A stretch of 64,000 nt of DNA from an uncultured Aliarcobacter sp. (GTDB lineage: Bacteria; Campylobacterota; Campylobacteria; Campylobacterales; Arcobacteraceae): NCBI GenBank assembly GCA_963664305.2, contig CAXXLV010000002.1, forward strand, positions 64,001 through 128,000. The letters run 5' to 3'. The translations under genes and the position numbers were made by a program. Positions within the stretch are counted from its first letter, which is position 1; every line of letters begins with the position of its first letter. Under the pieces are notes generated by a model. It worked only from the letters and a program-made list of their open reading frames with translations. It did no database searches and had not been told where the DNA came from. Positions 4,766 to 31,704 of the stretch are shown in pieces.

Positions 4766-4843
4766 ATGAATAGAATATTATTAGAAGATATAGAGATCAA
4801 ACCTTCAAAAGTTGTTTGTATAGGAAGAAATTATATGGATCAC
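4766..4843 (+). pseudogene. 5' fragment (codons 1-26) of host FAH-family gene, interrupted by the island
   Basis: ATG at 4766 gives MNRILLEDIEIKPSKVVCIGRNYMDH; the K-x-x-C-I-G-R-N-Y-x-x-H motif is the FAH N-terminus; stop at 4850-4852 just inside the island. Confidence 0.9.
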
Positions 4844-4859
4844 ACCCATTAGTTAGATA
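4844..4859 (+). repeat. Left terminal inverted repeat of island
   Basis: acccattagttagata matches the reverse complement of 31144-31159 (acctattagttaaata) at 14/16. Confidence 0.8.
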
Positions 4860-4947
4860 CATAAAACTTACACTCATTAGTATAAATTTTATGTACAATA
4901 GTTGATTTACTATGATAATATAGGGAAAATTATTTTTAGGATTTCCT

Positions 4948-6366
4948 ATGTTAAAAAATTTTATTACAAATTTAGAAATTTACACTCCCACAATTAAATC
5001 AAATAATAATCTCCCAATAGCTAACGAAAATGGTGAGGTCATTTATTATAAAAAGATTGAAAATAATAATGATGAATCAAACATCTATTATGAATTTCCT
5101 TTTGTAGTTAAAAGTGATGGAACTCTTTGGTATGAAGCTAATATGTATTTATTATGGAAAATTGATAATAATCCTACAATTGATCCCCAAACATTAAAAA
5201 ATCACTCTTTTTCATTGCAAGATTATATTAATTTTTGCGAGAGAGAAAATATTGATTGGAGTGTTGCAAAAAAAATTACATCTAGACCTAATTGGAAATA
5301 TAGAAAATATTTAGATGAAAGACTATTAAATGGTGAAATATGTCCAAATACACTGAAAAAAATTATTAGTCCCAATACATCTTTTTATAATTATATGATA
5401 GATGTTAGAGGACATTCTTTTGATGTTAAATTATTTAATTTAATAAAATCAACTATTTTCAATAAGAATAAGTATGGAAGAATTTTTCTCAAGGATGTAA
5501 ATTGTTATGATATTAATCAAGTTAATATATCTGTGAATCGTTATGATGAAAGTATAATAGATGATGGTAAAAAATTAAAACCATTGACTTATAAAGAGCA
5601 GAGTATTTTGTTTAATACATTAAGCATTTTAAATAATTATGAAATGAAATTGATTTTTCTTTTTTCAGTTCTTACTGGAGCTAGAATTGAAACAGTTCTT
5701 ACATTACGCTTGAAACATTTTGTTAATAGTTTACCTATAAATTATTCTGAGAATGAAATTTTAAAATGGCAAAATAATCAAGAAAAGTTTGATTCTATTT
5801 CAAAATATTTTTTACCTGTAGGTCCAGGAACAGGTGTAGATACTAAAAAAGATAATAATTATGATTTAGTTTTGTCAAAAAGATTAAAAGAATTAATCAT
5901 TACGTATATAATTTCTAAAACAGCATTTAATCGTAGAAGTAAAGCAAAGCCTCAATCTAGTGAATTAGAACAATATGTATTTCTTTCAAATAGAAGTAAC
6001 CCTTATTTTATATCATCTACTGATATACATAGAAAAGAAAATAAAAATAAAAATAAACAAAAAGGGGGAACAATAAATACTTTTATTTGCAATACTTTAA
6101 AACCTAAATTAAAAGAATTAAATAGATTTTTTCCTTTTCATTTTCATAACTTGAGAGCAACTTTTGCAATGAATTATCTGATAATAAATCAACCATTAGT
6201 AGATAAAGGAATGATGACTCAACTTCAATTAGCTTTAAATTTACAAAAGTTAATGGGTCATAAAAAAATAACAAGCACCATGAAATATATTGATTATTAT
6301 AGTCTAACTAAAGATATAAATCAAGCTCATGACTTTCATGAAGAAAAACTTTTAAGTTGGTTATAA
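4948..6366 (+). CDS. Tyrosine recombinase (GinA-like)
   Basis: TGARIETVLTLR (R), HFHNLRATF (HxxR), LMGHKKITSTMKY (H, Y). Confidence 0.9.
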   Translation: MLKNFITNLEIYTPTIKSNNNLPIANENGEVIYYKKIENNNDESNIYYEFPFVVKSDGTLWYEANMYLLWKIDNNPTIDPQTLKNHSFSLQDYINFCERENIDWSVAKKITSRPNWKYRKYLDERLLNGEICPNTLKKIISPNTSFYNYMIDVRGHSFDVKLFNLIKSTIFNKNKYGRIFLKDVNCYDINQVNISVNRYDESIIDDGKKLKPLTYKEQSILFNTLSILNNYEMKLIFLFSVLTGARIETVLTLRLKHFVNSLPINYSENEILKWQNNQEKFDSISKYFLPVGPGTGVDTKKDNNYDLVLSKRLKELIITYIISKTAFNRRSKAKPQSSELEQYVFLSNRSNPYFISSTDIHRKENKNKNKQKGGTINTFICNTLKPKLKELNRFFPFHFHNLRATFAMNYLIINQPLVDKGMMTQLQLALNLQKLMGHKKITSTMKYIDYYSLTKDINQAHDFHEEKLLSWL

Positions 6367-6367
6367 A

Positions 6368-8332
6368 ATGAAGAATAAAAAATATTTTAATATAGAAAAT
6401 TTGACGGAAATTCACACATTATATATAAATTATGATGAGTTATTAAATATGATTATTGATGAAGAACGTAAAAATATTGATTATTCACGTATTGGATTAA
6501 TGTATAAAAAATTAAGAATCAATTTATCTCATATTATGTATAAAAAAGTTGTTAAAAAAACTTACGGTAATAAAGGGGCTAAATATTTTGTAGATTTAGA
6601 AACTTTAAATAGTAAAAATTCAAAAATAATTGATGATTTAATAAAAATGCTTTGTCAATATAACATATGTAATCCAATAAAAAATATTAATTCTATAAAG
6701 AATATTATAAATAGTGTACTATATTTTATTAATTGGATTAATGAACAATCCAAAGATTATCCTATTATATTGGATGAAGGAATTAATTGTTTTATAGAGT
6801 ATAAAATATATTTAAGAAGTTTAATTAAAAATAATTTAATTGTTTCTACTACTGCACATTTTAGAAGTGTATGGGCATTGAAATTATTAGAAATTTCAGT
6901 AAATGATAATGAAGGAATAATATCAAAAGATATCAATGTTATAAAAGGGAAGGAAATTAAAAATAATGATTTCTCAATCACTACGAAGTCTGAAAAAGAA
7001 TTTGAATATGTATTTGCTTTTTATTATAATTTTTTCAATCAAGTTAGTGATTTCTTACTTGAAAAAAGATCTTATCCCTATTCAATTTCATTACCAAGAG
7101 GTCCTGCAACCATAATTCCAAGTTTAAAAGCAAAAGTTATCCCTTCATATCAAGAATATGGTAATAATAATATTGCAATTGATCATTATGATGGTCATAT
7201 ATTAAATGATCATGAAATTGAATTAATAACATCTGAATTAAAAGGAAAAGAACGTTGGAATAAGAAAAGTAGTATTAAAGTTGCAAGGAATAAGCTATTA
7301 CTATTATTATCAGAAGTTAATGAACAATTTAATCATGAACATAGACTTTCCCTTTCCAAAAGAGCAATGGATGCCTGGTATATGATTATGCTTGCAATTA
7401 CTGGTACTAATGAATCTTCATTAGGTAAATTAAAGTGGAATAATAAGTTTTGTATTACAAGAGATGAATATAATTTTTTAGCTATAAAAAGTAGAGCTAA
7501 TAATAAAAAAGTTCTTTTCAAAATTAGAAAAGGATTTAAAAAAGCATTTGAAAAGTTTCTTAAATTACGTGAATTTGCTTTAAATGGTTATAGTTGTGAA
7601 TATTTATTTTTTGGTGGATATTCTGAAAATTCAAAAATTGTTCAAAATCAAATTGAGGGTTCTCGGGCAGCTGAAATTTATAAAACATTTCTATCTATAG
7701 ATAATAAACTACCCCGTATTTTATCAAGAGATTTTCGTAAAGATTATGGGAATGATTTTTATAAGACAAAGGGTTTAATTGTTGCTTCTGTTGCTCTACA
7801 ACATGATCTCAGTACACATTTACAGCATTATTCTGGTGAAACAAAAGAAGAAAAAGCAAAACAAATAGAAAATTTTTTTGCATCAGTACATACAACAGTT
7901 ACAAATGATATTAATAAAAATATTCAAAAAACTGCATCAGGAAATTGTGATTGTATAGAGGAATTAACACCTGAAATAATAATTGAACAAGATCTAGAAA
8001 TAGAACTTGAATGTATGGATCAAAAAAGTTGTTTGTGGTGTGTGCATTATAGAATTCATAATAATGAAGAAGATATTAGAAAATTGATGAGTATTAAGTA
8101 TATTGTTATAGAGATTTCTTTATCAAGGGCTGAAAATAAAGAACATTATAAAAAAGTTATAAATCCTTGGTTAAATCGTATTGAAATGATATGTAAAGAA
8201 ATGATTAGCTTAGATTCAAATTCAAAACTATTAATAAATAAAATATGGGAAGAAGTAAAATATGAAGGCAAGCTTACTCCATATTGGTTAAGATGGTTAG
8301 ATTTATTAGATGAGTTAGGAGTTTTAAAATGA
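6368..8332 (+). CDS. Degenerate tyrosine-recombinase-like protein (GinB-like)
   Basis: ITGTNES (first R absent), SRDFRK, LQH...HYS, C-terminal Cys cluster CxxxxxCLWCVHY; 1 bp gap after the first recombinase gene. Confidence 0.7.
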   Translation: MKNKKYFNIENLTEIHTLYINYDELLNMIIDEERKNIDYSRIGLMYKKLRINLSHIMYKKVVKKTYGNKGAKYFVDLETLNSKNSKIIDDLIKMLCQYNICNPIKNINSIKNIINSVLYFINWINEQSKDYPIILDEGINCFIEYKIYLRSLIKNNLIVSTTAHFRSVWALKLLEISVNDNEGIISKDINVIKGKEIKNNDFSITTKSEKEFEYVFAFYYNFFNQVSDFLLEKRSYPYSISLPRGPATIIPSLKAKVIPSYQEYGNNNIAIDHYDGHILNDHEIELITSELKGKERWNKKSSIKVARNKLLLLLSEVNEQFNHEHRLSLSKRAMDAWYMIMLAITGTNESSLGKLKWNNKFCITRDEYNFLAIKSRANNKKVLFKIRKGFKKAFEKFLKLREFALNGYSCEYLFFGGYSENSKIVQNQIEGSRAAEIYKTFLSIDNKLPRILSRDFRKDYGNDFYKTKGLIVASVALQHDLSTHLQHYSGETKEEKAKQIENFFASVHTTVTNDINKNIQKTASGNCDCIEELTPEIIIEQDLEIELECMDQKSCLWCVHYRIHNNEEDIRKLMSIKYIVIEISLSRAENKEHYKKVINPWLNRIEMICKEMISLDSNSKLLINKIWEEVKYEGKLTPYWLRWLDLLDELGVLK

Positions 8333-10357
8333 TTGTAGAAAATTATCCTTTTTATGATTTTGAAGATATTGAAGATTTAAGAAATCCTGATAAGTTATTT
8401 TCTGATTCATCAAAAAAATACATAGAACCTAAAGCGGATTTTGTAATTAGTAGAAACTCTTTAGGGGAAAAAATTTCTTCGTATGGAGATGATATTTGGG
8501 ATTTGACCCCCTTATTCAAGAAAAACTATAAATATTCATTTTGAAACGATTTTAGATGATGAACTAAAAAAAGAATCTAAACGTATTTTATTTATGTATT
8601 TATTTAAAACAGAAGGAAAAGGATCATCACATGTAAGTGGAGAAAGTTTAAATGGTGTTTATTTAATGGGAGTACGACCAATAATAGATTTTATTTTTCC
8701 TAAGAAATTCACACTTAAACAATTTTTTGAAAATGATAAATATATAAATGATTATTTAAAATATATAGAAAAAAATTGTTTATATATATGTATTCATTTT
8801 CAAATCATTTTGAATCTTTTAAATAAATTGAGAGTAGAACACAGTGGCATAAATTATAAAGAATCAAAAAATAATAATCAGAAATTAGCACAACTTATTA
8901 AAACTTATACTGATAATATGAATCAAACTGAAGTTATTCCAGTCGGAATTTATGTAAAAGCTGCACAAATGCGTTGGCAATATATTGAAGAAATAGAAAA
9001 AAATATTGGAAATATAGTTGGTTTTCTAAAAGAAATGATAGAAAATGAAAATTTTGCATATTCTACTAAAGGCTGCAAAATTGATAAAAATGGTAAAACA
9101 AAAAGATGGATACAAATAGAAAATTTTATTTCTTGGGGAGATGCTGTAAATAAGTATAATTTAAAAGATTTTTATGAAAAATATAATGTAGAATGTAGAC
9201 AACAAGTTCAAAAAATAATTAGATTGATTCAAGGTACATGTCGACATTTAATTCATATGTATACGGGGATGAGAGATAATGAGTGCAGAACTTTAGAAAG
9301 TGATTGTTTTCTTGAAGCAAATGATGAACTACCATGTAGAATACAAGGGATAGAGACCAAAATACATGGAAAATCTACAAAACAAGTATGGATTACGCAT
9401 TCTGAAATAAAAAGAGTAATTACTATTTTAAATCTTATAACTGAACCAATATATGAATTTTATACACCATACTTAACAAAAAAACCTTTAATTATTTCTC
9501 CTGGATTTTTATTAAATCAGAAAAGGAACAAATATTATGAATATCAAGCTTCAGTTGCACGAAGTCTTGGAAAACATAGTTTAAGTGAAATGAAATTAAA
9601 TAATGAACAAATTTCAGTTAAACAATCTCATATAGAAGATGAATTAATGGTGATTGATCCAATTCGTAATTGGACTAATCACAAATGGTTAAAAATTGGA
9701 AAAGCTTGGAATTTTACTTCTCATCAATATAGGAGAAGTTTAGCTGTGTATTCATTAGGAAGTGGTTTAGTTTCCATTTTTGCTTTAAAAGAACAATTTG
9801 GACATCTTTTATCAGATATGACAGAATACTATGGTAATGGATATTTAAAAGCAAAAAATATTTTAGGTATAGAAGATAAAGATCACATTGCAAATTATAT
9901 TAAACGTAATGCTATATATATTGAGGCTATGACTTTTACTAAGGAGGTACTATTATCTGATGAAATACTTTTTGGTGGGGGTGGGATTTTTTTTGATAAA
10001 TATCTAGTCGCAAAAACTCCTGAAGCAAAAAATGTAATTTTAAAAAATCTTTCATTAACAATAAAACAAGTTGAAAAAGGTGAATTACGTTGGCATTCCA
10101 CACCATTAGGTGGGTGTGTAACTTTAGATCCTTGTGATAAATATTTGATACCTACTTCTCTTTTTTCATGTATTAAATGTGAGTATTCTGTTCAAAAAAT
10201 TTCAAAAATTGAAAAAATCATAACATTACAAGAAAAATATATTAATGAGTTTGATATAAGAGATTTAAATTCTATAACACATAGAACAGAAGTTAAAAAA
10301 TTATCAGAATTAAAGAATTATTTAAATTTTTTAAAAGCAAAAGTAAAAATTAATTAA
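8329..10357 (+). pseudogene. Tyrosine recombinase (GinC-like), +1 frameshift in C5 run 8507-8511
   Basis: ORFs 8329-8544 and 8594-10357 fuse to 675 aa if one C is removed (WDLTPYSRKTINIHF...); YTGMRDNE, SHQYRRSLA, QFGH...TEYY motifs intact. Confidence 0.85.
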
Positions 10358-10368
10358 AGGAAAATTCT

Positions 10369-10725
10369 ATGTCAATTGAAGAAGAATATGAGGCTGCAAG
10401 ATTAAGAATTAAAAAAAATAAGCCACTAATAGTTCCAAAATTTACAAAAGTATCTTATGATTCAGTAGCTTTAGAAGCGGGAAAAAAAGAAGGTTCTATT
10501 AGAAAATCAAGATATCCAGAATTATATGAAAGAATTACAAAAGATAAAGAAGAGTATGAAACAAGTGAAGTAAATGAGTGTAAAGCTTTAAATAAAAGAT
10601 ATAGAAAAGATATTGAAGATTATAAAGTTAGATTGTCAGAAATGTATAATAGGGAGCTAATGTTATTAAAAAGATTAGAAGAATTGGAAAAGATTATTGA
10701 AAATTTTAATAAAAGAAATTTTTAA
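10369..10725 (+). CDS. Small HTH/coiled-coil accessory protein (GinD/TnpC-like)
   Basis: VSYDSVALEAGKKEGSIRKSRYPEL followed by a coiled coil; last gene of the recombinase operon; RBS aagga. Confidence 0.7.
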   Translation: MSIEEEYEAARLRIKKNKPLIVPKFTKVSYDSVALEAGKKEGSIRKSRYPELYERITKDKEEYETSEVNECKALNKRYRKDIEDYKVRLSEMYNRELMLLKRLEELEKIIENFNKRNF

Positions 10726-10777
10726 AATAGGTTTTTAAATAAACTTATTTTATTATAAAATAAAAAAGGTATAGAGC

Positions 10778-11398
10778 ATGAATTGTATAAATTTTAATAA
10801 TGAAAAGATCAATCCATCAAAAATAATATGTGTCGGAAGAAATTTTGTTGATCATATTACTGAATTGAACAATGAAATACCAGAAAATATGGTAATCTTT
10901 AATAAACCCAATTCTTCAATTTCTCAAGATCTATTTTATTTTTCTGAGGATACTCGATTTGAAGGAGAACTTTGCTTTTTAGTTGTAAATAAAAAAATAA
11001 CAGGTATAGGTTTTGGACTTGATTTAACTAAAGCAAATATACAAAATAAAATGAAAGAAAAGGGATTACCATGGGAAAGAGCAAAGTCGTTTAATGGTTC
11101 TGCTGTTTTTAGCAACTTCATTGAATTTGATGGTGATATGAAAAATTTAACATTTAAACTTTTTATAAATGAAAAACTTCAACAAGAAGGCAATTATGAA
11201 CTGATGATTTATAAACCTGAAATAATGGTTGAAGAAATTGAAACGTTTATGAGTATAGAAGATGGTGATATTATTATGAGTGGTACTCCTAAAGGAGTAG
11301 GAACTTATAAAGTTAATGATACCTTTAAATCTGTAATATATTATAAAGAAGAAATTTTAATAGAACATATTTGGGATGTAAAAAATAACAATAGTTAA
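10778..11398 (+). CDS. Island-borne full-length FAH-family protein (paralogue of the disrupted host gene)
   Basis: KIICVGRNFVDH, FNKPNSS, FEGEL, GLDLT, KGLPWERAKSF, GDIIMSGTPKGVG. Confidence 0.93.
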   Translation: MNCINFNNEKINPSKIICVGRNFVDHITELNNEIPENMVIFNKPNSSISQDLFYFSEDTRFEGELCFLVVNKKITGIGFGLDLTKANIQNKMKEKGLPWERAKSFNGSAVFSNFIEFDGDMKNLTFKLFINEKLQQEGNYELMIYKPEIMVEEIETFMSIEDGDIIMSGTPKGVGTYKVNDTFKSVIYYKEEILIEHIWDVKNNNS

Positions 11399-11484
11399 TT
11401 AGAAGTCATAAAATTACATTATTTAAATTAAACAGTTAATTAGAGTTTAATATTTTTTAAATAAAAGAAATTAGTCTATATTTT

Positions 11485-12590
11485 GAGACCGTTAAATATT
11501 CCGTGTCAAAGTAATTCTGATAGGAGAAATCCTATCACACATGAACTTAAATTTTAAGTTCACTATCCAGTCTACCCTCGAAAAATATTGCCAGTTGTGA
11601 AAGTGTTAAACTCCAATTCCATACTGGCATTGTCCATTTTTTCTCAGCATTTTTTATTCCCATAAAAAGCAATTTTAGCAAAGAATTATCATTTGGAAAT
11701 GCACCTTTAGTCTTAGTTAGTTTCCTAAATTGTCTATGTACTGATTCAATTAAATTTGTTGTATTTGTAAGATTTAATTTCTTGTGATTTTTATAGATAA
11801 AAAGATATGGCAAATTATTTCTAATACTACGATAAGCAGCTACAAGTTTTTTTGAGTAAAAAAATATTTTTGACTATCTGGATGAAGAGTAATTTCATTA
11901 AGGAAATCTTTATATTTGATATACCAAATATCTAATGCTTTTATAAATCTACTCTCATCACTATATTTCAATCTAGTCACAATTTTCTTTAACTCTTGGC
12001 TAGCTTCTAGTTTTAGATGTAATGTTATATATCTTTGAATAATACGTTTCTGGTAAAAATGACTCATTTGTACAGGATAATCTTTAAATACGTTAGATAC
12101 CCCTCTTTTACCATCTATTGTTACAGATAAAATTGTATATCCTAGATTCAATAGTTCTATTAATAAATATTTATAATCATCTAATCTTTCTGTTTGTATA
12201 TGTTTCCAAATTAGAATCTCATGGGGGGAAGGCTGTCCATAAAAACTAAAGTACCTAACTTATCTTTTCTTTTACTATAGAAGGTTGTATCACATATTAA
12301 ATTTACTGGTCTTGGATTATGTACTTTTTCAATAGGAAGATATTCTTTAATTTTATAATGAACCCATTGTATAGATTTATTATATTTATCTGCTAAGTTT
12401 TGTAAAGATTGTCTATGATAAACATATTCTTTGAAAAGATGATTTTCTAGTTTTTCTGGTCATCTTTTTGATTGAAATTTTTACCACAATTATTACATTG
12501 ATAACGTTGAATTTCTTTTCTTTTACCAATCTTTTTTGTGTTTTTAGATAAACATTTTGGACATATTTAAGTGTTTTTTTACAGACATCT
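11485..12590 (-). mobile_element. Decayed, chimeric IS256-family remnant
   Basis: IS256-like end gagaccgttaaatattccgtgtcaa at 11485; classical IS256 C-terminus [23 protein letters not shown]; upstream broken transposase with CPKC...YQCNNC zinc finger and DTTF / TIDGKRG DDE segments, several stops and frameshifts. Confidence 0.8.
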
Positions 12591-12737
12591 GTAAATAATC
12601 CTTTTTAACTAACGATAGTACCGAAGTTTACTTAACTTTTTAGACCCTTTTTTAATTAATCCTTTTTTTATATTAACAGGAATAGATAATTATCTATATA
12701 GATGAAATGCCATTTTAAATAATAAACAAAATTTAAT

Positions 12738-12974
12738 CTATTTAACTAATATTTCAATATCAACATCTAAAATTTTTGAAATTTTATATAAATGTTCAAG
12801 ATTAAAATGCTTTTTATTTTTATATAGTTCAGCTGCAGATACTAGACTTACAGATTTATAATTCATTTCATAACTTAATTGTAATTGAGTTATACCTTTT
12901 ACTTCTCTATATTTCTTGACATTTTTACCAATTTTTATATAAAACTCTTCAATTTCATTTTTGGAAAAATTCAT
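12738..12974 (-). CDS. XRE-family HTH regulator
   Basis: IGKNVKKYREVKGITQLQLS...NLEHLYKISKILDV. Confidence 0.85.
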   Translation of the reverse strand: MNFSKNEIEEFYIKIGKNVKKYREVKGITQLQLSYEMNYKSVSLVSAAELYKNKKHFNLEHLYKISKILDVDIEILVK

Positions 12975-12980
12975 TTAAAC

Positions 12981-13041
12981 CTACTATAGTAATTTATTTT
13001 AAGTTTATTTGTTATAGAATTTTTCTTCAAACTACTATAGT
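12981..13041. promoter_or_regulatory. Two copies of ctactatagt (palindromic core actatagt) between divergent genes; putative operators
   Basis: Identical 10-mers at 12981-12990 and 13032-13041. Confidence 0.55.
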
Positions 13042-13052
13042 GGGTTAAAAGA

Positions 13053-13667
13053 ATGGAAGAGATTTATAAAGCAGAATTTTTAGAAATACAATTAAAAATT
13101 TTAAAAGATACTATAAAAGATTTAGAAAAAATTTTATATTCCAATATACATAAAAATTCAAATACATATAAAGAACTTAAATTATATATTAATTCACTGA
13201 TTCAAGAAAAATATATTTATGAAAGAGAATTAAATTCCTCAAAAGAATTTTATTTAGAAAAATCAATTTCAACAATTAAAGTAAAGACTAAAATATTAGA
13301 TAATTTATTTAATATAAAAAAAACTTTTAAATGTCGTTCTATATCAGATACACTTGAACTACTTTTAGAGTTTTATATGGATGATAAATATTATGATCAA
13401 TTAAATGAAATTATGGAATGTGTTATTCCAAGTAAATTAGAAAGAAATTTAAATAAATCTTTTTTTTATATATGTAAATGTGAAAATATAGATTGTAAAG
13501 TAATTTACTTTATTGATGATGTAATAATTAAAAATGATACTAAATATTTAGACTTGAGAAAATTTAAATCATTTAAAAAATCAAATTTTGAAGAATATTT
13601 ATTTTCACCAAATCTTAATTTAGATGATTTGGATAATTTCTATAAAATACTTGCTGATTCATTTTGA
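13053..13667 (+). CDS. Hypothetical protein
   Basis: 204-aa ORF divergent from the XRE gene; no recognised family. Confidence 0.55.
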   Translation: MEEIYKAEFLEIQLKILKDTIKDLEKILYSNIHKNSNTYKELKLYINSLIQEKYIYERELNSSKEFYLEKSISTIKVKTKILDNLFNIKKTFKCRSISDTLELLLEFYMDDKYYDQLNEIMECVIPSKLERNLNKSFFYICKCENIDCKVIYFIDDVIIKNDTKYLDLRKFKSFKKSNFEEYLFSPNLNLDDLDNFYKILADSF

Positions 13668-13894
13668 TTTTATTTTGTTGACAATACAACATTCAATTAA
13701 AATGATTAAATATAATAAAATGAAGTGTTTTTTTATAAAAAACAAACTTTTTATTTTAATTAGATTTATAAGCTTATTTTTTTATTCCATAATCCCTTAA
13801 GGTTTGTTGAACTTTGCATTTTTTATTTTTTGAACACTTTTTGGAACATGGAAAATGCATTAATATAGTATATGTTATATATCCTAGAGGTTTT

Positions 13895-13941
13895 GGATAA
13901 AGCTGTTCAGAATTTTGTATCTTATTTCTTGTTGCCAGATC
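13895..13941 (+). repeat. 47-bp motif, copy 1 of 3 (others 29639-29685, 30887-30933)
   Basis: ggataaagctgttcagaattttgtat...ccagatc aligns without gaps to the other two copies. Confidence 0.6.
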
Positions 13942-14025
13942 ACAAATCTATATTTTATATATTTCAATTTAGTTCTCTTCAGCTGGTTCTACTTGAAATA
14001 ATTTTGGTATAAGTTCATTATACAT

Positions 14026-14317
14026 TATTTAAATTATTTCCTACATTTAAATTTAATGTATCATTTGCTCTTACATTTACACCTACAAAGTTTGCATCAT
14101 TTATCTCAATAATACTAATTTTCCTTTTGAAATATTTCATCAAATTTATTTTGATTATCTTTTATCAAAGTTCTAAATTCTGTATTATTTTCCAATTTAT
14201 TATAAACTTCTTGTTTTGACAAACCCATATTTTTTAGAATAATTATTTTCTCTTCTATTGTTCCATAATTATATTTGTACTTTTCTTCTTCTGACTGGAA
14301 AACTGATTTTTGTTGAA
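14026..14317. repeat. ~290-bp direct repeat of 21882-22173 (immunity-gene 3' end plus start of next stalk)
   Basis: Near-identical DNA at offset 7856. Confidence 0.9.
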
Positions 14318-14609
14318 AAATTACTTTTGAGTTATTTGATTCATTTTTATCAACATTCTTGAAATATTTAAACTGAAATTTAAATATAAAAATTAATAAT
14401 AAAAATTGAATAATAAAAAAAATTGTAAAAAACTTTTCATTATTAAAAAATTTTCTTTCAAAAATAAAAATTATTGCAGAAAAAATTACATAGAAAAAAA
14501 CTAATACATAAATATTTATTTGATACATTTTAGCTATATATGAAAATAAAGCTATTCCTATTAAAAATATAAATATCACTAACAAATAATAAAATATTTC
14601 TTTAATCAT
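14115..14609 (-). CDS. Putative immunity membrane protein (paralogue of 21971-22471)
   Basis: About 3 TM segments; C-terminus KYKYNYGTIEEKIIILKNMGLSK...FQKEN shared with paralogue; overlaps upstream tip stop. Confidence 0.65.
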   Translation of the reverse strand: MIKEIFYYLLVIFIFLIGIALFSYIAKMYQINIYVLVFFYVIFSAIIFIFERKFFNNEKFFTIFFIIQFLLLIFIFKFQFKYFKNVDKNESNNSKVIFQQKSVFQSEEEKYKYNYGTIEEKIIILKNMGLSKQEVYNKLENNTEFRTLIKDNQNKFDEIFQKEN

Positions 14610-14931
14610 TTGACAATACTCCTTCGATTATTTCTCTTGGCTTCTGTGTTGCAATTTGTTCAATAATAATTGGTGTTACAATTGTTCCAACTCTTTTTTT
14701 TATTTCAGAATCTATACTTGATAATTTTTCTTCAAATTTTAATCTTTTAGTATTACTAGTTAAATTTGGATTGTTAATTTGATTTAAAATTGTATTTCTC
14801 GCCGATATTCTTTCTTTTAATTCTTTTATACCATCATATTTTGTATCAGAAAAAGAACCTATTGTACTTGCAATCATTGTTTCATTTAAATTAATTTTTT
14901 CTAAATCTATCTTATTATAAATTTCACTCAA
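14602..14931 (-). pseudogene. Orphan toxin-tip fragment homologous to the tip of 22461-25004
   Basis: ERISARNTILNQI...KPREII versus DRVKARNTVQNQL...EPKEIV. Confidence 0.6.
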
Positions 14932-15188
14932 AGTTTCAGCAGGATTATTATTTTCTGTTCCTCTATCAGTTGCTTGATATTGGTTTTTTTGGGTAAAAAT
15001 ATTTCCATTTGTATTATATCAAATGCTCCACCTGCAAGCAAAGTATCTATCGCAAATCCCGAACTAGCATTTTAATAAACTCTTGAACTCTTACATCATT
15101 ATTATCTAAATTATCTAATTATATTTCTTTTAGAAGGTAACTTTTAAAACAATTTAACTGCCTATTTTTTCACTTTCTTTAACATTTA

Positions 15189-15485
15189 TTACTTCCCTTC
15201 AATTTTATTGTTTTGGAAGACTTCTTTTTCTTTGTCCGTTAATGGAATAAAAAGTTTCTGATCAAATTCCTGTTTAGGCATATTTTTTAAATTTGTTGCT
15301 TCTTCATATTTATCTACTATCCAATAAAGTGTAAAAACAACAATAAATCCAAATAATAAATTCTTTATATCTTTTTTTATTATAGAGAATACATATGATT
15401 TACTTTTCGTTTTGTTATATGATTGTATCCAAGTGTATAAATAAAAACCAATAATTAAAGACCATATAATAATTAATTTAATCAT
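15189..15485 (-). CDS. Putative immunity membrane protein
   Basis: Two TM segments; likely start MIKLIIIW at 15485, immediately after a tip-remnant stop. Confidence 0.55.
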   Translation of the reverse strand: MIKLIIIWSLIIGFYLYTWIQSYNKTKSKSYVFSIIKKDIKNLLFGFIVVFTLYWIVDKYEEATNLKNMPKQEFDQKLFIPLTDKEKEVFQNNKIEGK

Positions 15486-15486
15486 T

Positions 15487-15633
15487 TTATTTTTCTTCTT
15501 CGATGAAAATAAAGTTTGCACCTTCTGTTATACCATATGTTGCACCTTGAAATTTTATATGATTCCACTGATTTTGGATATGAGCATCAATTCTAGGTTA
15601 TGGTTTATCTATTTTTGATTGAGTTTGTGCCAT
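15487..15633 (-). pseudogene. Remnant toxin tip with internal stop
   Basis: AQTQSKIDKP*PRIDAHIQNQWNHIKFQG resembles ATAITKINKLDNRIDAHTNNIIDNVVTQG of 15911-17020. Confidence 0.55.
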
Positions 15634-15651
15634 TTTTTTTGTAATTTTGAA

Positions 15652-15924
15652 TTACTTTTTATTAAAAATATTCTTTATATTATCAAAAACAAATTTCTTA
15701 GAAGGTGGATAATTTAAAATAAAAGCAATTACTATTAGGATACAACTTAAAATCCATTTAGCATAATCGCTAAAATATATAGATATTAAACCTGTAATTC
15801 CACCTAATAAAACTATATATACGGAATATACTAGCCCTTCCTTAAGTCCATTTTTTCGACTAAAATAAATTATTCCTATGACTATTAATATAATTCCAAT
15901 TACAATATTACTATTCATTTTCAT
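15652..15924 (-). CDS. Putative immunity membrane protein
   Basis: About 3 TM segments in 90 aa; overlaps the end of the upstream cassette. Confidence 0.6.
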   Translation of the reverse strand: MKMNSNIVIGIILIVIGIIYFSRKNGLKEGLVYSVYIVLLGGITGLISIYFSDYAKWILSCILIVIAFILNYPPSKKFVFDNIKNIFNKK

Positions 15925-17977: not shown

Positions 17978-18008
17978 TATTGATTTTAGATTCAGACTCA
18001 ATTTTTAT

Positions 18009-19860: not shown

Positions 19861-20111
19861 AAATTGTCATTTTTATTATTTCCCTTATCTTTTTTATAAC
19901 TTTTATAAATAGAAATACCTTGAACAATAGCTACTATAGAACCTCCAACAATAATTAATATCCCCATCATAATATTGGATATTTCATCTGTTCCCCATTT
20001 TGTATAAGAAGGGTCTAAAATTGTTACAATACCCATAAATATTGCAATAATAGCAGTTAAAAATGTACTATTAATTTTTGATAATAAACTATTTCTCATT
20101 ATTTTTCTCAT
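19857..20111 (-). CDS. Putative immunity membrane protein
   Basis: Two TM segments, 84 aa; overlaps the upstream cassette end. Confidence 0.6.
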   Translation of the reverse strand: MRKIMRNSLLSKINSTFLTAIIAIFMGIVTILDPSYTKWGTDEISNIMMGILIIVGGSIVAIVQGISIYKSYKKDKGNNKNDNF

Positions 20112-21999
20112 TTTCCATTAATTTATTATTCCCATATCCTAACCAGCCCCATTTAGATGTAGGTATTGTGTCAAAATTCTGCCCAGAATAAATATCATAG
20201 GAGTTGGCTATAGGTTTTGGAAGCCAACCAGTTGCTCCATATTCAACAATTGTCATTGCAGGTCTAATAGTTAAATTTCTAGCCCACTCTGGCATATTAT
20301 TATAAGCAGTTGAAATATCTTGTGATATATCATCTCTTTTTAAATAAACTGTACTTACATTATTTCCAAACTGATTAATCACTTCTCCTGATTTATTTAT
20401 TACTTTTATCATTGGTTGATTCATATTTTTATCTATTTCTCCTTCTATTTCTCTATGTATATCATTTTCATTTGTTGGTGTATTAAGATAACTTTGTATT
20501 GCTAATACAGCCGGGATTATTAAAAGAGGACTATCATCCCCACCAGACTTATCAAGTGAAGAAAATTGTACATTATTTCTATTTAGCAGATTATTACTAA
20601 TATTAAATACACTTGGTACTGATGTTACTATCCCTTGATTATGTGTATTTGTATCAGCTAAACTTCCACCAGTAATAATACTTAATGCTCCATTTGTATA
20701 AAAGGCTAAATCTTCTCCAAAGTTTGTTGCATATATATTTTGGTCTTTATCATTTGACACAAATATTTTATCTTGTTTATCCATATCATGACTTATTTCA
20801 TGTCCCAAAGATGCTATCAATTGTGTTGTCGAGTCATTATATTTATCATTTACATAACTAGTATTAGTTTTATCATCAAAGTATCCTTTTACTTGTGTAT
20901 TATTTACTCCTGTTTCATCTGTATAAATTAATTTTACATCATTTGACACATATCCTAATTCTTGCATTACTGTTAGGGCTAATTCTTTTAACATATTTTG
21001 TTTATCTGTTGGGTTTAAATCTGAGTTTTGTAATTGTTTAGCTAATTCTTCATCATTTGCTATTTTTGCTTTAACACCATTATATACATCTATATTTTTT
21101 TGAGTTTCACTAAAAAAATCAGTTAATCCTACTTTATCATTAGTTACTATTTGTTCTATTGCGTTTGTTATTGCCGTTGCTGTATTATAATCATCTTTTA
21201 TTTGATTCAATCCATTTACACTTAAAAGTCTTGTATCCAAGGTTGCATCTACTTTCGTTCCTGTTGAGCTTGAGTATAAATCTTTATTTATATTTTGTGT
21301 ATCTGTATTTAATTTTGTTAAATCATCACTATTCTCTTTATCTTTTATAGTTATATTCCCTTGACCTAATGTTGCTAATGTTTTACTTACATTTACATCT
21401 AATCCTGTTGATGAGTTATATCCTACTGAAGATATTCCACCTTGTTGTGGTTCTTCTTTTTGATTTACTATTTTTGTACTACTTAAATTATAATTTAGAT
21501 TTAAACCTAAACTTTGATTTGAAGAGAAAGAAGAGTTTGACAAGTTTGAAAAAGTTAAAGTATTTGTTGATAAATTTAGATTTTTATTATCTACAAAGTT
21601 TTCATTCTCATTATAATTTCCACTTGCTAACAAAGAACCTTTTAGATTAGTATTTTCACCAACATTTACATTTAGATTATTTGCAGTAAGAGAACTCAAC
21701 ACTGTTTGTTTTGTTTGTGTTACTCCATTATTTACACTAAATCCTCCATTTACAGAACTTACTTTTCCTACATCTAAACTTGGTGTTCTATTTGCTGCTG
21801 CTCCTGCACTTCCAAATCCTAGTCCTGCATTTACATTAGATCCTTTTGAATTTGAAGAATATTCATCTCTTAGGGATTCTATATTTAAATTATTTCCTAC
21901 ATTTAAATTTAATGTATCATTTGCTCTTACATTTGCACCTACAAAGTTTGCATCATTTATCTCAATAATACTAATTTTCCTTTTGAAATATTTCATCAA
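20089..21999 (-). CDS. Orphan haemagglutinin-repeat C-terminal cassette
   Basis: Stalk DANFVGANV...ATLDTRLL shared with siblings; LGHEISH; KSGGDD boundary; unique tip; true homology begins at about 21958. Confidence 0.82.
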   Translation of the reverse strand: MMKYFKRKISIIEINDANFVGANVRANDTLNLNVGNNLNIESLRDEYSSNSKGSNVNAGLGFGSAGAAANRTPSLDVGKVSSVNGGFSVNNGVTQTKQTVLSSLTANNLNVNVGENTNLKGSLLASGNYNENENFVDNKNLNLSTNTLTFSNLSNSSFSSNQSLGLNLNYNLSSTKIVNQKEEPQQGGISSVGYNSSTGLDVNVSKTLATLGQGNITIKDKENSDDLTKLNTDTQNINKDLYSSSTGTKVDATLDTRLLSVNGLNQIKDDYNTATAITNAIEQIVTNDKVGLTDFFSETQKNIDVYNGVKAKIANDEELAKQLQNSDLNPTDKQNMLKELALTVMQELGYVSNDVKLIYTDETGVNNTQVKGYFDDKTNTSYVNDKYNDSTTQLIASLGHEISHDMDKQDKIFVSNDKDQNIYATNFGEDLAFYTNGALSIITGGSLADTNTHNQGIVTSVPSVFNISNNLLNRNNVQFSSLDKSGGDDSPLLIIPAVLAIQSYLNTPTNENDIHREIEGEIDKNMNQPMIKVINKSGEVINQFGNNVSTVYLKRDDISQDISTAYNNMPEWARNLTIRPAMTIVEYGATGWLPKPIANSYDIYSGQNFDTIPTSKWGWLGYGNNKLMENEKNNEK

Positions 22000-22471
22000 A
22001 TTTATTTTGATTATCTTTTATCAAAGTTCTAAATTCTGTATTATTTTCTAACTTATTATAAACCTGTTGTTTTGACAAACCCATATTTTTTAGAATAATT
22101 ATTTTCTCTTCTATTGTTCCATAATTATATTTGTATTTTTGTTCTTCTGTTTGAAAAGCTGATTTTTGTTGAATGGTCACTTTTTCATTTATCGGTTGAC
22201 TATTCTTAGTGAATTCTGTATATAATGCATGTGATGCCACTATTAAAAACGCTCCTAAAAAAAAGTATTTATCTAAAAACTTTTGTAAAAAAATTTTTAA
22301 AATGAAAGATAAAAATATAAAAGTTAAGATATATATAAAAATTAATAAATATACATTATTTATAGCTATATTATCATAACTAATCAATGTTATTAAGGAA
22401 AAACTAAAACCTAAAAATATTGAGAATATACCCTTAAAAAAATCATTAATTTCATTCCAATTAATTTTCAT
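21971..22471 (-). CDS. Putative immunity membrane protein (paralogue of 14115-14609)
   Basis: About 3 TM segments plus shared C-terminal domain; overlaps the stop of 22461-25004. Confidence 0.65.
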   Translation of the reverse strand: MKINWNEINDFFKGIFSIFLGFSFSLITLISYDNIAINNVYLLIFIYILTFIFLSFILKIFLQKFLDKYFFLGAFLIVASHALYTEFTKNSQPINEKVTIQQKSAFQTEEQKYKYNYGTIEEKIIILKNMGLSKQQVYNKLENNTEFRTLIKDNQNKFDEIFQKEN

Positions 22472-25004
22472 TAGTATTTCCTTCAGGTAAGTTGTCTTGT
22501 ATTATTTCTTTCACTATTTCCTTTGGTTCAGTATTTAAAATTGTTTTAGTAACCTCAGGTATCAAAAGAATTTTTGTTTTATCAATAATTTGATTATCAA
22601 TTTTTTCTACTCTATTATTAAGTTTATTTTGCAAAGTAGGGCTTGTTGCTTTATCTAATTGATTTTGTACTGTATTCCTAGCTTTAACTCGGTCAATAAC
22701 ATTATTTACATTAGTTGATGTTTTTGTACCTGTTGAACCAATTCCCACAGATACAGCGGTTTGAGTCCAATCAATATTATCTACAATTTTTTTAATAGCC
22801 TCCGCTGGATTAGCTAGTAATTCTTGTCTTATTTGTTCATTATTAACCAATTGTGTAACAGTTTGGTTAAGTAAATCAGAACTAGCCGTAAATCCTGCAT
22901 TTTTAAGTGATAATTCCATACTCTTTTTAGTAATAGCTTCAGCAATATTTTTTACTACTTCTCTTCCACCTAAAGCAAGTTCACTAGCTTTTAAAGATAA
23001 TATCATATTATCCACTAACTTATTTGCGTCATCAACTTGTTGTTTTTGAGAAACATATATATTATCAAATTCTTCTTGACTTAATCCTCTTAAAGTACCA
23101 TCATTTATTACTTGTTTTAAAATTTCACTTTCTGTATTTCCTGTTTCTATCAATGCTTTTATTCTATCTTTTGCATTATCTGATTGTAAATCTTTTGTTC
23201 TATCCATATCTTGAAGCGTCCAGTAACTTTCGTCATCAATTCTTCCTTCACCACTATTTACCTTACTTGCATCTTGAAGATACAAACTTGTATTTGCTTT
23301 TAATGTATTTAAATCTTGATTTGTTACAACAATTTTATTCAATATAGGATTACTATTTAATTGAACATTATTATACACGTAAGAAGAAAAATCTAATCCA
23401 CTTGCTGAGTAATTACCAAATATATTCGCATATTCTTCTTGTAATTGTGTTGTATCTCTTAAGTAAGTTTCTCCTTGATTTTGTCTTACATGAGCTACTT
23501 CATGTCCTAGAGTGTTTGCAGAACTTAAAGCATTTTGATTTAAAATCTTATCTAAATATATATTTGAACTAGTACTATCTGCATTTGTATACGTTGAACC
23601 ATATTTTCCTAATAAAGCAACTTTTGCTGTTTCAATATTTATTCCATAAATATCTGCATAAATTTGAGCATAATCATTTACTGCATTGTCTATTTGTTCT
23701 TGAGAATAATTTTGTTGATTTTCCAAGATATTTATTGTTTGTCCATTATCTTTTAATGCTAGTGCTTTTTGTACATCTAAATCTTTTTGTACATCACCTA
23801 TATGATCAAATGTATCAGTAATTTTAAATGCATCAGAGGTTGCAACATCACCTATAGCTTGACCTAATCTTTTTGTTCTTTCTAAATCTTCTTTTATTTG
23901 CTTTCTACCATCTTCAGTTAAAAGTCTAGTATCTAATGTTGCATCTACTTTCGTTCCTGTTGAGCTTGAGTATAAATCTTTATTTATATTTTGTGTATCT
24001 GTATTTAATTTTGTTAAATCATCACTATTCTCTTTATCTTTTATAGTTATATTCCCTTGACCTAATGTTGCTAATGTTTTACTTACATTTACATCTAATC
24101 CTGTTGATGAGTTATATCCTACTGAAGATATTCCACCTTGTTGTGGTTCTTCTTTTTGATTTACTATTTTTGTACTACTTAAATTATAATTTAGATTTAA
24201 ACCTAAACTTTGATTTGAAGAGAAAGAAGAGTTTGACAAGTTTGAAAAAGTTAAAGTATTTGTTGATAAATTTAGATTTTTATTATCTACAAAGTTTTCA
24301 TTCTCATTATAATTTCCACTTGCTAACAAAGAACCTTTTAGATTAGTATTTTCACCAACATTTACATTTAGATTATTTGCAGTAACTGAACTCAACACTG
24401 TTTGTTTTGTTTGTGTTACTCCATTATTTACACTAAATCCTCCATTTACAGAACTTACTTTTCCTACATCTAAACTTGGTGTTCTATTTGCTGCTGCTCC
24501 TGCACTTCCAAATCCTAGTCCTGCATTTACATTAAATCCTTTTGAATTTGAAGAATATTCATCTCTTAGGGATTCTATATTTAAATTATTTCCTACATTT
24601 AAATTTAATGTATCATTTGCTCTTACATTTGCACCTACAAAGTTTGCATCATTTGAAACATTTATATTCATATTATTTGCTAATAATTGTGAGTTGTTAT
24701 TTATTATAGTATCACTTGAAGAATTACTTTTTCCATAACCCAACCCAGCGGTTCCACCACCACCTCCATACATTGTAAATGCTATACTTCCATTTATATT
24801 TTCACTATCATTTGTATTTGAGTAATTATCTTGACTTGCTTTTACATTTAAGTTATTTGTATTTATATATAAATTCTCATCTGCAACAACATTTGAACCT
24901 ACTATATTTGTATTTGTACTTAATTTTTCATCTGTATTTATATAAATATTTTTTGCATTTAGGTTTGACAATAGATTTTTATTTACTATTAGGTTTACAC
25001 TCAA
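22461..25004 (-). CDS. 5'-truncated haemagglutinin-repeat exoprotein (CdiA/TpsA-like C-terminal portion)
   Basis: Asn/Ser/Gly-rich beta-helix-like repeats (LNVNVGENTNLKGSLLASG), HEVAH motif, variable tip; no signal peptide or TPS domain seen. Confidence 0.82.
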   Translation of the reverse strand: MSVNLIVNKNLLSNLNAKNIYINTDEKLSTNTNIVGSNVVADENLYINTNNLNVKASQDNYSNTNDSENINGSIAFTMYGGGGGTAGLGYGKSNSSSDTIINNNSQLLANNMNINVSNDANFVGANVRANDTLNLNVGNNLNIESLRDEYSSNSKGFNVNAGLGFGSAGAAANRTPSLDVGKVSSVNGGFSVNNGVTQTKQTVLSSVTANNLNVNVGENTNLKGSLLASGNYNENENFVDNKNLNLSTNTLTFSNLSNSSFSSNQSLGLNLNYNLSSTKIVNQKEEPQQGGISSVGYNSSTGLDVNVSKTLATLGQGNITIKDKENSDDLTKLNTDTQNINKDLYSSSTGTKVDATLDTRLLTEDGRKQIKEDLERTKRLGQAIGDVATSDAFKITDTFDHIGDVQKDLDVQKALALKDNGQTINILENQQNYSQEQIDNAVNDYAQIYADIYGINIETAKVALLGKYGSTYTNADSTSSNIYLDKILNQNALSSANTLGHEVAHVRQNQGETYLRDTTQLQEEYANIFGNYSASGLDFSSYVYNNVQLNSNPILNKIVVTNQDLNTLKANTSLYLQDASKVNSGEGRIDDESYWTLQDMDRTKDLQSDNAKDRIKALIETGNTESEILKQVINDGTLRGLSQEEFDNIYVSQKQQVDDANKLVDNMILSLKASELALGGREVVKNIAEAITKKSMELSLKNAGFTASSDLLNQTVTQLVNNEQIRQELLANPAEAIKKIVDNIDWTQTAVSVGIGSTGTKTSTNVNNVIDRVKARNTVQNQLDKATSPTLQNKLNNRVEKIDNQIIDKTKILLIPEVTKTILNTEPKEIVKEIIQDNLPEGNTNEN

Positions 25005-27699: not shown

Positions 27700-28134
27700 T
27701 TAATTTTCTTCAACAATTATACAATTTGTTTTATAGTAATTCATATCTTCAATTAAAATATCAAATATATCATAAATATTTTTCATTCTTATATTTACAT
27801 AAAAATTTGATAAATTATCTGCATTATGGTTTAAATTTGGTTTGTTATTTGGTACATTACATATATTTTCTTCAAAGCTCCATATCGCATCTTTTATAGA
27901 CAACTTTGAAAGCTCATTTTTTATAGTTTTTAACTCATTTTTAAATTTTTCTAAATCTTCAAACTTTACACCATTTTTTTCATCATAATACAAATTATTC
28001 ATTACTATTGGAAATCTACTCCCCCATTTACTATTTTCCAATCTATAACAGATAGTTGAAAACCAAGAATATAATGTTTCAGAATAACCAAATTCCATCC
28101 AATCCGAATATATTTTAAACCCTACATTTTTCAT
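27700..28134 (-). CDS. Imm70-like immunity protein
   Basis: VGFKI...LYSWFSTICYRLENSKWGSRFPIVMNNLY resembles the Imm70 signature. Confidence 0.7.
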   Translation of the reverse strand: MKNVGFKIYSDWMEFGYSETLYSWFSTICYRLENSKWGSRFPIVMNNLYYDEKNGVKFEDLEKFKNELKTIKNELSKLSIKDAIWSFEENICNVPNNKPNLNHNADNLSNFYVNIRMKNIYDIFDILIEDMNYYKTNCIIVEEN

Positions 28135-28367: not shown

Positions 28368-28370
28368 GTT

Positions 28371-30886: not shown

Positions 30887-30933
30887 GGAAGAAACTGCTC
30901 AGAGTTTTATATACTGGTTAACGTTGACAGATC
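30887..30933 (+). repeat. 47-bp motif, copy 3 of 3
   Basis: ggaagaaactgctcagagttttatat...acagatc. Confidence 0.6.
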
Positions 30934-31040
30934 AGGTTTTGTAATAATGATCAAATTAATTGGAATATATTTCAAATATTATTTGACAATATTGTTTTTT
31001 TTTGTTAGGATAAATGAACCTTAAATTATCGTAGTTTTAA

Positions 31041-31143
31041 AATGTACATTTTATATTAATAATTTGCACATTTTTAGATAAATTAATGTACATTTATAAA
31101 AATTTTTAAATTTGATTTTATCGGGTTTATGAAATGTACATTT
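31041..31143. repeat. Subterminal tgtaca-core repeats at the right end of the island
   Basis: tgtaca/tgcaca cores at 31043, 31065 and 31087 (22-bp period) and at 31135. Confidence 0.7.
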
Positions 31144-31159
31144 TATTTAACTAATAGGT
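31144..31159 (-). repeat. Right terminal inverted repeat of island
   Basis: tatttaactaataggt; 14/16 match to the left end. Confidence 0.8.
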
Positions 31160-31167
31160 AATGTCTT

Positions 31168-31704
31168 ATTGCAGAACTTAACAATGAAGTTCCAGAAGAT
31201 ATGGTGTTTTTTATAAAACCAAATTCTGCAATTTCAGATAAATTAAATTTCCCACAAAATCAAAATTCTTGTCATTATGAAGCGGAAATTTCTTTTTTAA
31301 TTGAAGATGATAAAATCACTGGTGTTGGATTTGGTTTGGATTTGACATTAAGAGAAGTACAAAGTAAATTAAAAGAAAAAGGACTTCCTTGGGAAAGAGC
31401 AAAAGCATTTGATGGTTCAGCTGTTTTTTCTAAATTTGTAAGTTTTGCAGATGAAATTTCTAAATTAGGAATAGAGCTTTATATAAATGGAGAACTAAAA
31501 CAAAAAGGTGATTACTCTTTGATGATAAATAAACCAATCGATATTATAAAAGAGGCAAAAACTTTTTTAAGCTTTGAAGATGGAGATATTCTAATGAGTG
31601 GAACTCCAAAGGGAGTAGGGGCATTTAAAAAAGGTGATATTTTTCTTGGAAAGATACTTTTTGATGATAAAATTATATTAGAGCAAGAGTTTAAAGTCTT
31701 TTAG
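31168..31704 (+). pseudogene. 3' part of the interrupted host FAH-family gene
   Basis: IAELNNEVPEDMVFFIKPNS...HYEAEI...GLDLT...SGTPKGVG; in-frame stop upstream at 31159; continues the 4766-4843 fragment. Confidence 0.9.

Follow-up and report, generated by a model that had tools for sequence, protein, structure and literature searches.

An integrative element of the strand-biased circularizing type in Aliarcobacter splits an FAH-family gene and carries a xenologous whole copy of it

Introduction

Integrative elements that insert in icd, prfC or dusA occupy a conserved gene and keep its function by a partial duplicate in attP, which supplies the displaced gene end as a fusion. Members of the Tn554 family consist of three genes (tnpA, tnpB and tnpC) and carry along a 6-7 bp attachment (att) sequence. 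Here we describe an island of 26,324 bp in a 64,000-nucleotide stretch of DNA from an uncultured Aliarcobacter species (GenBank assembly GCA_963664305.2, contig CAXXLV010000002.1, positions 64,001 to 128,000 of the forward strand; this whole stretch is termed the window below). The island has inserted in a gene of the FAH family and supplies a whole, separate and xenologous FAH gene directly behind its recombination genes. We assign it to the SEs (integrative elements of the strand-biased circularizing type, which are kin of Tn554 and of the GInts) and propose that its FAH gene most likely replaces the function lost upon insertion. Unlike Tn554, it has a 654-residue tfp gene between two recombinase genes, whereas its 6-nt spacer is consistent with the att sequence of that family.

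SE-6283 and the other Vibrio SEs share with the island the order of the core genes, the imperfect terminal inverted repeats, a 6-bp spacer and the lack of a target duplication (PMC9345347, PMC10214605). As outlined in these papers, only one strand is circularized when attL and attR of an SE recombine, so that an empty site does not arise. SE-6283 inserts in a coding gene, bcp, and a bcp homologue is located just behind srap (VYA_19790 and VYA_19800; PMC9345347). Tn552-II from Staphylococcus (Firmicutes) likewise has a homologue of its target, tgl, directly after the recombination genes and followed by cargo, and a short att sequence is carried to its right end (PMC12486829). Both papers propose that these copies restore the lost function, and the authors of the second suggest that tgl rescues the disrupted target. 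The island meets the same pattern in that it splits a gene and has a whole homologue of this gene beside its recombination genes. The term "Target-gene-like" returned a single paper in our literature search.

The island differs from these systems in several respects. Its target and copy are FAH rather than bcp, and its host belongs to the Campylobacterota rather than the Gammaproteobacteria. IntA, Tfp and the main match of IntB share just 25-27% identity with their published SE counterparts, and for Srap the similarity is marginal (E = 0.03). Tn552-II has three genes and no tfp, a YolD-like target and a 7-bp att sequence, and its tgl holds an exact copy of att (PMC12486829), which is not the case for the island FAH gene (the spacer reads ATGTCT, the matching place in the copy TGATCA). 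The GInts (ginABCD) resemble the island in having three recombinase-like genes and a small fourth gene at one end, site-specific insertion, variable cargo after the recombination genes and an AT-rich far end, but their non-catalytic protein is the third (GinC) and not the second, and the available text describes elements that insert at the ends of genes and have promoters directed outward, rather than elements with spare copies (PMC5385486). A survey from 2023 places SEs in Gammaproteobacteria only (PMC10214605), and our literature search found nothing on elements of this kind in Campylobacterota. The arrangement, which the preliminary description of this locus had not seen reported for Campylobacterota, is thus in print for SE-6283 with bcp and for Tn552-II with tgl, but we are aware of no report from this phylum.

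Results

The host FAH-family gene is present in two pieces (Table 1), with the junction at window positions 4842|31167. This junction is exact when compared with the empty site of a sister species (genome G002, locus L024), where bases 1423-1499 correspond to window 4766-4842 and bases 1500-1833 to window 31167-31500, both at 96% identity. As the two FAH pieces are contiguous in L024, the insert comprises window positions 4843-31166, and no host bases have been duplicated or lost. The preliminary description of a gene cut after codon 26 and resumed 26.3 kb further on (from 31168) is therefore correct, and the uninterrupted gene expected in an empty-site strain exists in the sister species. The insertion point lies inside the DNA that encodes the conserved GRNY-x-DH motif of the FAH-family enzyme, and the 3' piece still matches PF01557 (E = 2.6e-25). 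A TauE/SafE-family gene is found immediately upstream of the broken gene (window 3948-4751); it has no match upstream of FAH in L024 and is absent from the same place in two related isolates (sequencing runs X3 and X4, see below), where 938 nt are skipped and 62 other letters lie between.

A six-frame search of the whole 2.78-Mb genome returned only two FAH matches, both at the island locus and 53% identical to each other. The sole intact FAH gene of this genome is thus the one inside the island that disrupts the other, a coincidence far beyond chance. Other genomes of the genus have one FAH orthologue each in 22 of 43 cases (73-94% identical to the host 3' piece), and a second copy similar to that of the island was found in none of the 43.

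The island FAH gene was noted in the preliminary description as intact and clearly diverged, 52 nt after the fourth open reading frame (ORF), and we confirm this assignment. The FAA_hydrolase domain covers the whole protein, which has the short, YcgM-like form of the FAH superfamily (PF01557). Its best NCBIfam match, PRK10691, remains under the cut-off (116 versus 201 bits), so that no specific enzyme name is justified. Of 68 columns with at least 95% conservation in 137 other FAH proteins, 65 are kept in the island protein and the three changes are conservative. It shares 93% identity with an Aliarcobacter butzleri protein (P0002) and 81% with a protein from the Logan contigs (P0003), and at most 70% with proteins from Sulfurimonas, Sulfurovum and other Arcobacteraceae among the matches listed, from a total of 7,511. 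We calculated a tree of 81 sequences (the best 60 of 120 listed matches, 19 ORFs from the genus, the host 3' piece and the island FAH itself; a further three genus loci, with ORFs that the filter did not catch, are not included). The island protein, P0002 and P0003 form one clade (SH-aLRT 99) nested among FAH proteins from outside Aliarcobacter, while 20 genus orthologues form a separate clade on a long branch (support 100). The preliminary description had asked whether island-type copies form a clade of their own, and in this tree they do; by its position there, the copy is a xenologue from another Campylobacterota lineage. A scan of window 4700-11700 detected no terminator-like site between srap and the FAH gene.

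Comparison with published elements defines the island as an SE. Its four recombination proteins are collinear with those of an SE on plasmid NZ_CP046903.1 (tblastn; E = 1e-37 for IntA, 6e-33 for Tfp, 7e-37 for IntB and 0.03 for Srap). The supplement of PMC10214605 places Tfp of this SE at 180960-182894 and Srap at 184936-185406, and lists a separate GInt on the same plasmid at 139719-142215 (GinC at 139719-141782). The window IntB, the query used for this comparison, matches the plasmid in a single place (183491-184810), inside the SE and outside the listed GInt. The island further shows the SE core-gene order intA-tfp-intB-srap at one end (ORFs 4948-10725), the SE catalytic pattern, with tyrosine-recombinase residues aligned in IntA and IntB but not in Tfp, and the SE end layout, with a 17-bp repeat (the SE range is 13-19 bp), a 6-nt spacer and host sequence that is contiguous in the empty site. 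Membership in the GInts was considered first, on the basis of three recombinase-like genes and a small gene, and was rejected on gene order and on the NZ_CP046903.1 comparison. The order is not that of a GInt because the second protein lacks the catalytic motif and the third has it, while the defective protein of GInts is the third. The host, an Aliarcobacter, is outside the reported gammaproteobacterial range of SEs.

Catalytic residues in IntA, Tfp and IntB were assigned solely by alignment. Arg-246, Lys-300, His-400, Arg-403, His-438 and Tyr-447 of IntA are invariant in an alignment with 12 relatives. IntB aligns with its relatives at Arg-315, Lys-344, His-465, Arg-468 and Tyr-500/501. In Tfp, an invariant asparagine (Asn-348) occupies the position of the first catalytic arginine, where IntB has arginine, and a serine (Ser-453) replaces the histidine (alignment A1). 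The locus had been introduced as a three-recombinase operon; three large genes and a small fourth are indeed present, but only two of the three encode a full catalytic set, and a frameshift interrupts the third large gene as assembled here. Its reading starts in a 71-residue ORF (8329-8544) and continues in frame 2 from about 8507 to 10357 (587 residues). The gene is a single ORF of 636-675 codons in all 9 relatives from the family, and an A. butzleri IntB of 675 residues (P0131, 95% identical) is uninterrupted where the window changes frame. Two near-identical metagenome contigs that cover the frameshift stretch are each 1 nt shorter than the window. The frameshift may be a true inactivating mutation or an assembly error; with intB frameshifted in this assembly, the present copy of the element may no longer be mobile.

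Imperfect inverted repeats of 17 bp define the two ends of the island, the right copy lying 6 nt inside the junction. Repeats of the left motif type are also found at the intA-proximal ends of distantly related elements in maf and endA genes, described below, and all three kinds of element, in FAH, maf and endA, have (T/C)ACnnnTTAGTT at their left ends. Following the SE/Tn554 model, the spacer ATGTCT next to the right repeat may be a footprint of the previous insertion site. Three short repeats near the right end (Table 1) have a counterpart near the left end (ATGTACAA, at 4891), and related ATGGACA repeats occur at both ends of the maf and endA elements. From their position, these end-proximal repeats could be recombinase binding sites.

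We compared window 3500-14000 with Logan contigs of the isolates X3 and X4. In both, a single contig runs from the upstream gene through the same FAH 5' piece, the left junction and the four core genes to the FAH copy, at ∼5% divergence from the window. Coverage is 4766-11396 in X4 (342 differences and 11 gaps over this range) and 4766-10891 plus 10864-11396 in X3. Both diverge from the window at 11396, where two bases of the FAH stop codon are still to come, and then share the same unlike continuation. At ∼5% divergence, the core genes, the FAH copy and the insertion site are thus shared, and the cargo behind FAH is different. The A. butzleri proteins P0131 (IntB) and P0002 (FAH, 93%) derive from the same record (longest contig 182,830 bp), which fits the picture of core genes and FAH being kept together. 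Tfp relatives at 71, 57 and 45% identity (P0123-P0125) were found on short Logan contigs only, P0123 together with P0132 on one of 7,165 bp; the same holds for P0003 and for core-gene relatives at 45-76% identity as a whole. In the metagenomes X1 and X2 the core genes are covered only by short contigs of low depth.

Operons of this type were located in 10 of 184 Arcobacteraceae genomes, the genome of the window included (27-37% Tfp identity), and in 0 of 361 genomes sampled from other families of the order. A scan of genome contigs based on the Tfp alignment yielded only 8 loci, all from a single peptide pattern, and their identity does not exceed 36%. No departure from the order intA-tfp-intB-srap was seen among the 9 relatives in the family, 3 gammaproteobacterial loci and the metagenome loci of sufficient length. 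None of the 9 family relatives has an FAH gene in the 14-15 kb fetched for each, and all are inserted elsewhere. Four of the 9, however, carry a spare copy of their own target. In genome G038, the host maf gene lies in two pieces separated by 11.6 kb, which encode residues 1-151 and 148-178, and a whole maf gene (181 codons) overlaps the srap stop codon by 4 nt; the flanks are contiguous in a relative (L077), and maf is single-copy in all 43 other genomes of the genus. In three genomes from two genera (G172, G171 and G094), the host endA gene for endonuclease I is split at about residue 88, and a whole endA is located between the left terminal repeat and intA; the flanks are contiguous at the empty site of G170. 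The endA layout is seen again in a metagenome locus (L144). In an Acinetobacter genome (G545), an unnamed 170-codon gene is split into pieces ∼17.6 kb apart (residues 14-104 and 96-169), and a whole copy follows srap directly, on the other strand. The layout of a split gene with a whole spare copy thus recurs in distant relatives, with maf, endA and the 170-codon gene. The endA copy of the Poseidonibacter element (L020; G171:C87:9490-10230) has an in-frame TAG and covers only profile positions 3-180 of 235; this spare copy may be decaying.

The preliminary description had proposed that the recombination genes and the FAH surrogate form the conserved core of an element family. The two are one block in X3 and X4 (∼5% diverged), but the 9 distant relatives, all inserted elsewhere, have no FAH gene, an outcome that the preliminary description had named as refuting its proposal; yet four of them carry the spare copy of their own target. 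A spare copy is thus a recurrent but lineage-specific feature, and it lies outside the universal core.

From 143 matches in metagenomes we obtained 80 loci, 24 of which have both flanks. Self-similarity across the element boundaries of these 24 gives a lower bound, since the screen is blind to short fragments, such as a 26-codon piece, and to ends more than 10 kb away. It returned one homologue pair (L124), which was rejected as a split target because it consists of two near-full-length ABC ATPase paralogues. L155, a metagenome contig of 7,064 bp, harbors a minimal four-gene element, with RadC profile positions 2-50 matched upstream and 45-121 after srap. The radC gene is the classic target of Tn554. 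In Enterovibrio (L052) and Halopseudomonas (L053), elements with ∼24% identity to the window Tfp both lie directly after the 3' end of hrpB. In G133, a resolvase gene is found behind srap and a second resolvase (54% identical) is intact elsewhere, with no sign of a split target. A sub-lineage common among the metagenome loci (L015, L019, L126, L130, L133 and L140) sits inside Tn3-family transposase genes and has a gene for a YhcG-like PDDEXK nuclease directly upstream of intA. Just behind srap and on the opposite strand, L167, L185 and L190 have a type IV pilin gene, and L013/L047, L119 and L124 a calcineurin-like phosphoesterase gene; the neighbor of L013/L047 and L119 is ligB, and in L124 an ABC ATPase frame takes its place upstream. 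In a Sulfurovaceae metagenome-assembled genome (L049), a truncated tfp-intB remnant is bracketed by an insertion sequence of two genes, present in inverted copies that are 100% identical.

For each spare copy, a natural and uninterrupted orthologue of the target gene was used as the reference in an alignment, and 40 nt around the insertion point were scored. The FAH copy matches at 32 of 40 positions, compared with a gene-wide mean of 26.1 (96% of 40-nt segments score 32 or below), and a 9-nt core, GATCATATT, is identical in copy and target. The maf copy matches at 31 of 40 positions, and the endA copy at 26 of 40 versus a mean of 21.0. The copies are similar at these places because the insertion points lie in DNA for conserved motifs. 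These values do not support the proposal that the FAH copy has diverged around the target so as to avoid self-targeting: the alignments reveal no sign of special divergence, although the few differences near the target might block insertion.

Behind the FAH gene, the cargo starts with remnants of a Mutator/IS256-family transposase. Over 11573-12625, summed depth is about 200-570 in X1 and 600-3,600 in X2, with many variants and indels, which points to a widespread multi-copy insertion sequence. Three truncated filamentous-haemagglutinin-repeat ORFs (PF13332; E = 6.5e-16, 8.9e-09 and 5.3e-25) are each followed by ORFs for small membrane proteins. They share long near-identical N-terminal segments and differ in their C-terminal parts, and an identical 93-residue antisense ORF occurs three times in the array (at 17178, 21369 and 24065). 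The cassettes could represent an orphan toxin/immunity array. The cargo also contains helix-turn-helix regulators, and a Pfam search of it found no resistance genes.

Table 1. Coordinates of the island, its ends and the split host gene in the window
Feature	Position	Strand	Remarks
Host FAH, 5' piece	4766-4842	+	26 codons, MNRILLEDIEIKPSKVVCIGRNYMDH; reads 2 codons into the island (TH), then stop
GGATCA, putative central 6 bp of target (attL)	4837-4842	+	Adjoins left terminal repeat; assignment follows the SE model of PMC10214605
Left terminal repeat, motif C-like	4843-4859	+	CACCCATTAGTTAGATA; 14/17 (15/20) matches to reverse complement of 31144-31160
intA, tyrosine recombinase, 472 aa	4948-6366	+	Weak PF00589 match; 27% identical to first gene of published SE (E = 1e-37)
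tfp, recombinase-fold protein, 654 aa	6368-8332	+	Without first catalytic arginine; 25% identical to tfp slot of published SE (E = 6e-33)
intB, large tyrosine recombinase	8329-10357	+	+1 frameshift near 8506-8511, within a short homopolymer
srap, small auxiliary protein, 118 aa	10369-10725	+	Fourth gene, kept in all relatives; weak match to published SE srap (E = 0.03)
FAH-family gene, full length (spare copy), 206 aa	10778-11398	+	PF01557, E = 2.7e-26; 52 nt after srap
Mutator/IS256-family transposase remnants	11547-12151	-	PF00872, E = 3e-07 on 11547-11813
Three truncated filamentous-haemagglutinin-repeat (CdiA-like) C-terminal cassettes	14115-25004	-	17032-17886, 20089-21999, 22461-25004
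Imm70 immunity-protein family gene	27700-28134	-	PF15601, E = 3.8e-25
Three ATGTACAT repeats near right end	31042-31141		Starts at 31042, 31086, 31134
Right terminal repeat, motif C'-like	31144-31160	-	Pairs with left repeat
ATGTCT, 6-nt spacer between right repeat and host DNA	31161-31166	+	No counterpart in empty site
Host FAH, 3' piece	31167-31704	+	178 codons, still open; from 31167/31168, IAELNNE...; 92-94% identity to closest genus orthologues

Discussion

Our analysis defines an SE-type element that has broken a host FAH gene and carries a xenologous FAH gene, which most likely replaces the lost function (probability about 0.65 for this reading as a whole). The comparisons above show the insertion and the type of the element, and they show that the copy is foreign and that close relatives have kept it together with the core genes. 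In the mechanism we propose, the element inserted site-specifically and without target duplication at GRNY-x-DH DNA, thereby destroying the native FAH gene. The complete FAH gene from another Campylobacterota lineage, directly behind srap, would then take over the lost function, and landing in a conserved coding site would cost the host little. We infer that the host expresses the FAH copy, which thereby makes up for the broken gene and owes its retention to this effect.

Several observations weigh against this reading. Sharing of the FAH copy has been demonstrated only among elements with ∼95% DNA identity, which could represent one recent element rather than a long-lived family. None of the 80 metagenome loci has an FAH gene, and a homologue pair spans the boundary in just 1 of the 24 two-flank loci, the rejected L124. 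Spare copies were not seen in the elements beside an intact single ligB (G017 and G024), in those inside Tn3 tnpA (G073 and G027), in L052 and L053 at hrpB, or in L155 inside radC. No FAH match was found in 21 of the 43 other genus genomes, some of which are incomplete, so the gene may be dispensable and its loss cheap. A promoter scan of window 4700-11700 performed no better than shuffled sequences (64 sites found versus 58.4 expected) and lends no support to expression of the copy. Finally, the right spacer ATGTCT is unlike the FAH target GGATCA, and the last donor site may thus not have been an FAH gene. This mismatch, and the route by which whole target genes reach either side of the core, are left unexplained by our proposal.

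Among other explanations, we consider it unlikely that the spare copy is an unselected by-product of element growth, for instance an earlier target swallowed by an outward slip of an element end. The att copies inside tgl of Tn552-II, which its authors read as vestiges of an ancestral form (PMC12486829), would be in line with such an origin, as would the constant position of the copy next to the core genes: it comes behind srap in the FAH, maf and Acinetobacter elements and ahead of intA in the endA elements. The copies are, however, complete genes with their own starts and not end fusions, they are found to both sides of the core and in both orientations (that of Acinetobacter being on the opposite strand), and we see by eye no sequence resembling a terminal repeat at the target-homologous place of the island FAH gene. 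The 65 of 68 conserved columns kept in its protein would fit purifying selection.

A single chance capture of the FAH gene as ordinary cargo, with no meaning in its likeness to the target, appears quite improbable. Although the cargo of these elements is very variable, the remnant of an insertion sequence lies right behind the FAH copy, and neither the 9 family relatives nor the 80 metagenome loci have FAH, chance would have to account for the only two FAH matches of the genome being the split gene and the gene in the island that splits it. The same coincidence would have to recur with maf, endA and the 170-codon gene, at 24-31% Tfp identity, and with the published bcp and tgl; the six lineages now known point to an excess of target homologues. 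The FAH copy has moreover been kept beside the core genes while other cargo differs. A benefit of the copy to the element rather than to the host, through the choice of targets or through immunity against a second insertion, is very improbable: the preliminary description pointed out differences near the target, but the copies are more like their targets at the insertion point (32, 31 and 26 of 40 nt for FAH, maf and endA, respectively), the FAH copy is 6 kb and 20 kb away from the two element ends, and FAH, Maf and endonuclease I are enzymes with, to our knowledge, no role in recombination.

New in our study are SE-type elements in Campylobacterota, the FAH target/copy pair, and the same logic with maf, endA and the unnamed Acinetobacter gene. 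We tentatively suggest, as a possibility that falls short of an even chance, that carrying a whole spare copy of the target is a general strategy that has evolved repeatedly in the SE/Tn554 superfamily across phyla, with the elements, which are non-conjugative, homing into DNA for conserved catalytic motifs. If so, the landing sites would be the GRNY-x-DH motif in FAH, EWEH in endonuclease I and a C-terminal motif in Maf. Such invariant sites would be present in many hosts and could not easily mutate away. The logic would be that of inteins and homing introns, with the cost paid by gene replacement and not by splicing. In the long run, native genes would give way to the spare copies, and housekeeping enzymes would thereby spread as xenologues.

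Our findings extend SE-type elements to a second phylum and to the Arcobacteraceae, a family that includes the emerging pathogen A. butzleri. Four further target/copy pairs, with only 24-31% Tfp identity, turn two isolated published remarks, on bcp and tgl, into a pattern, which makes cost-free insertion by gene replacement testable. The pattern also suggests a route that mobile elements could take to swap housekeeping genes for foreign versions.

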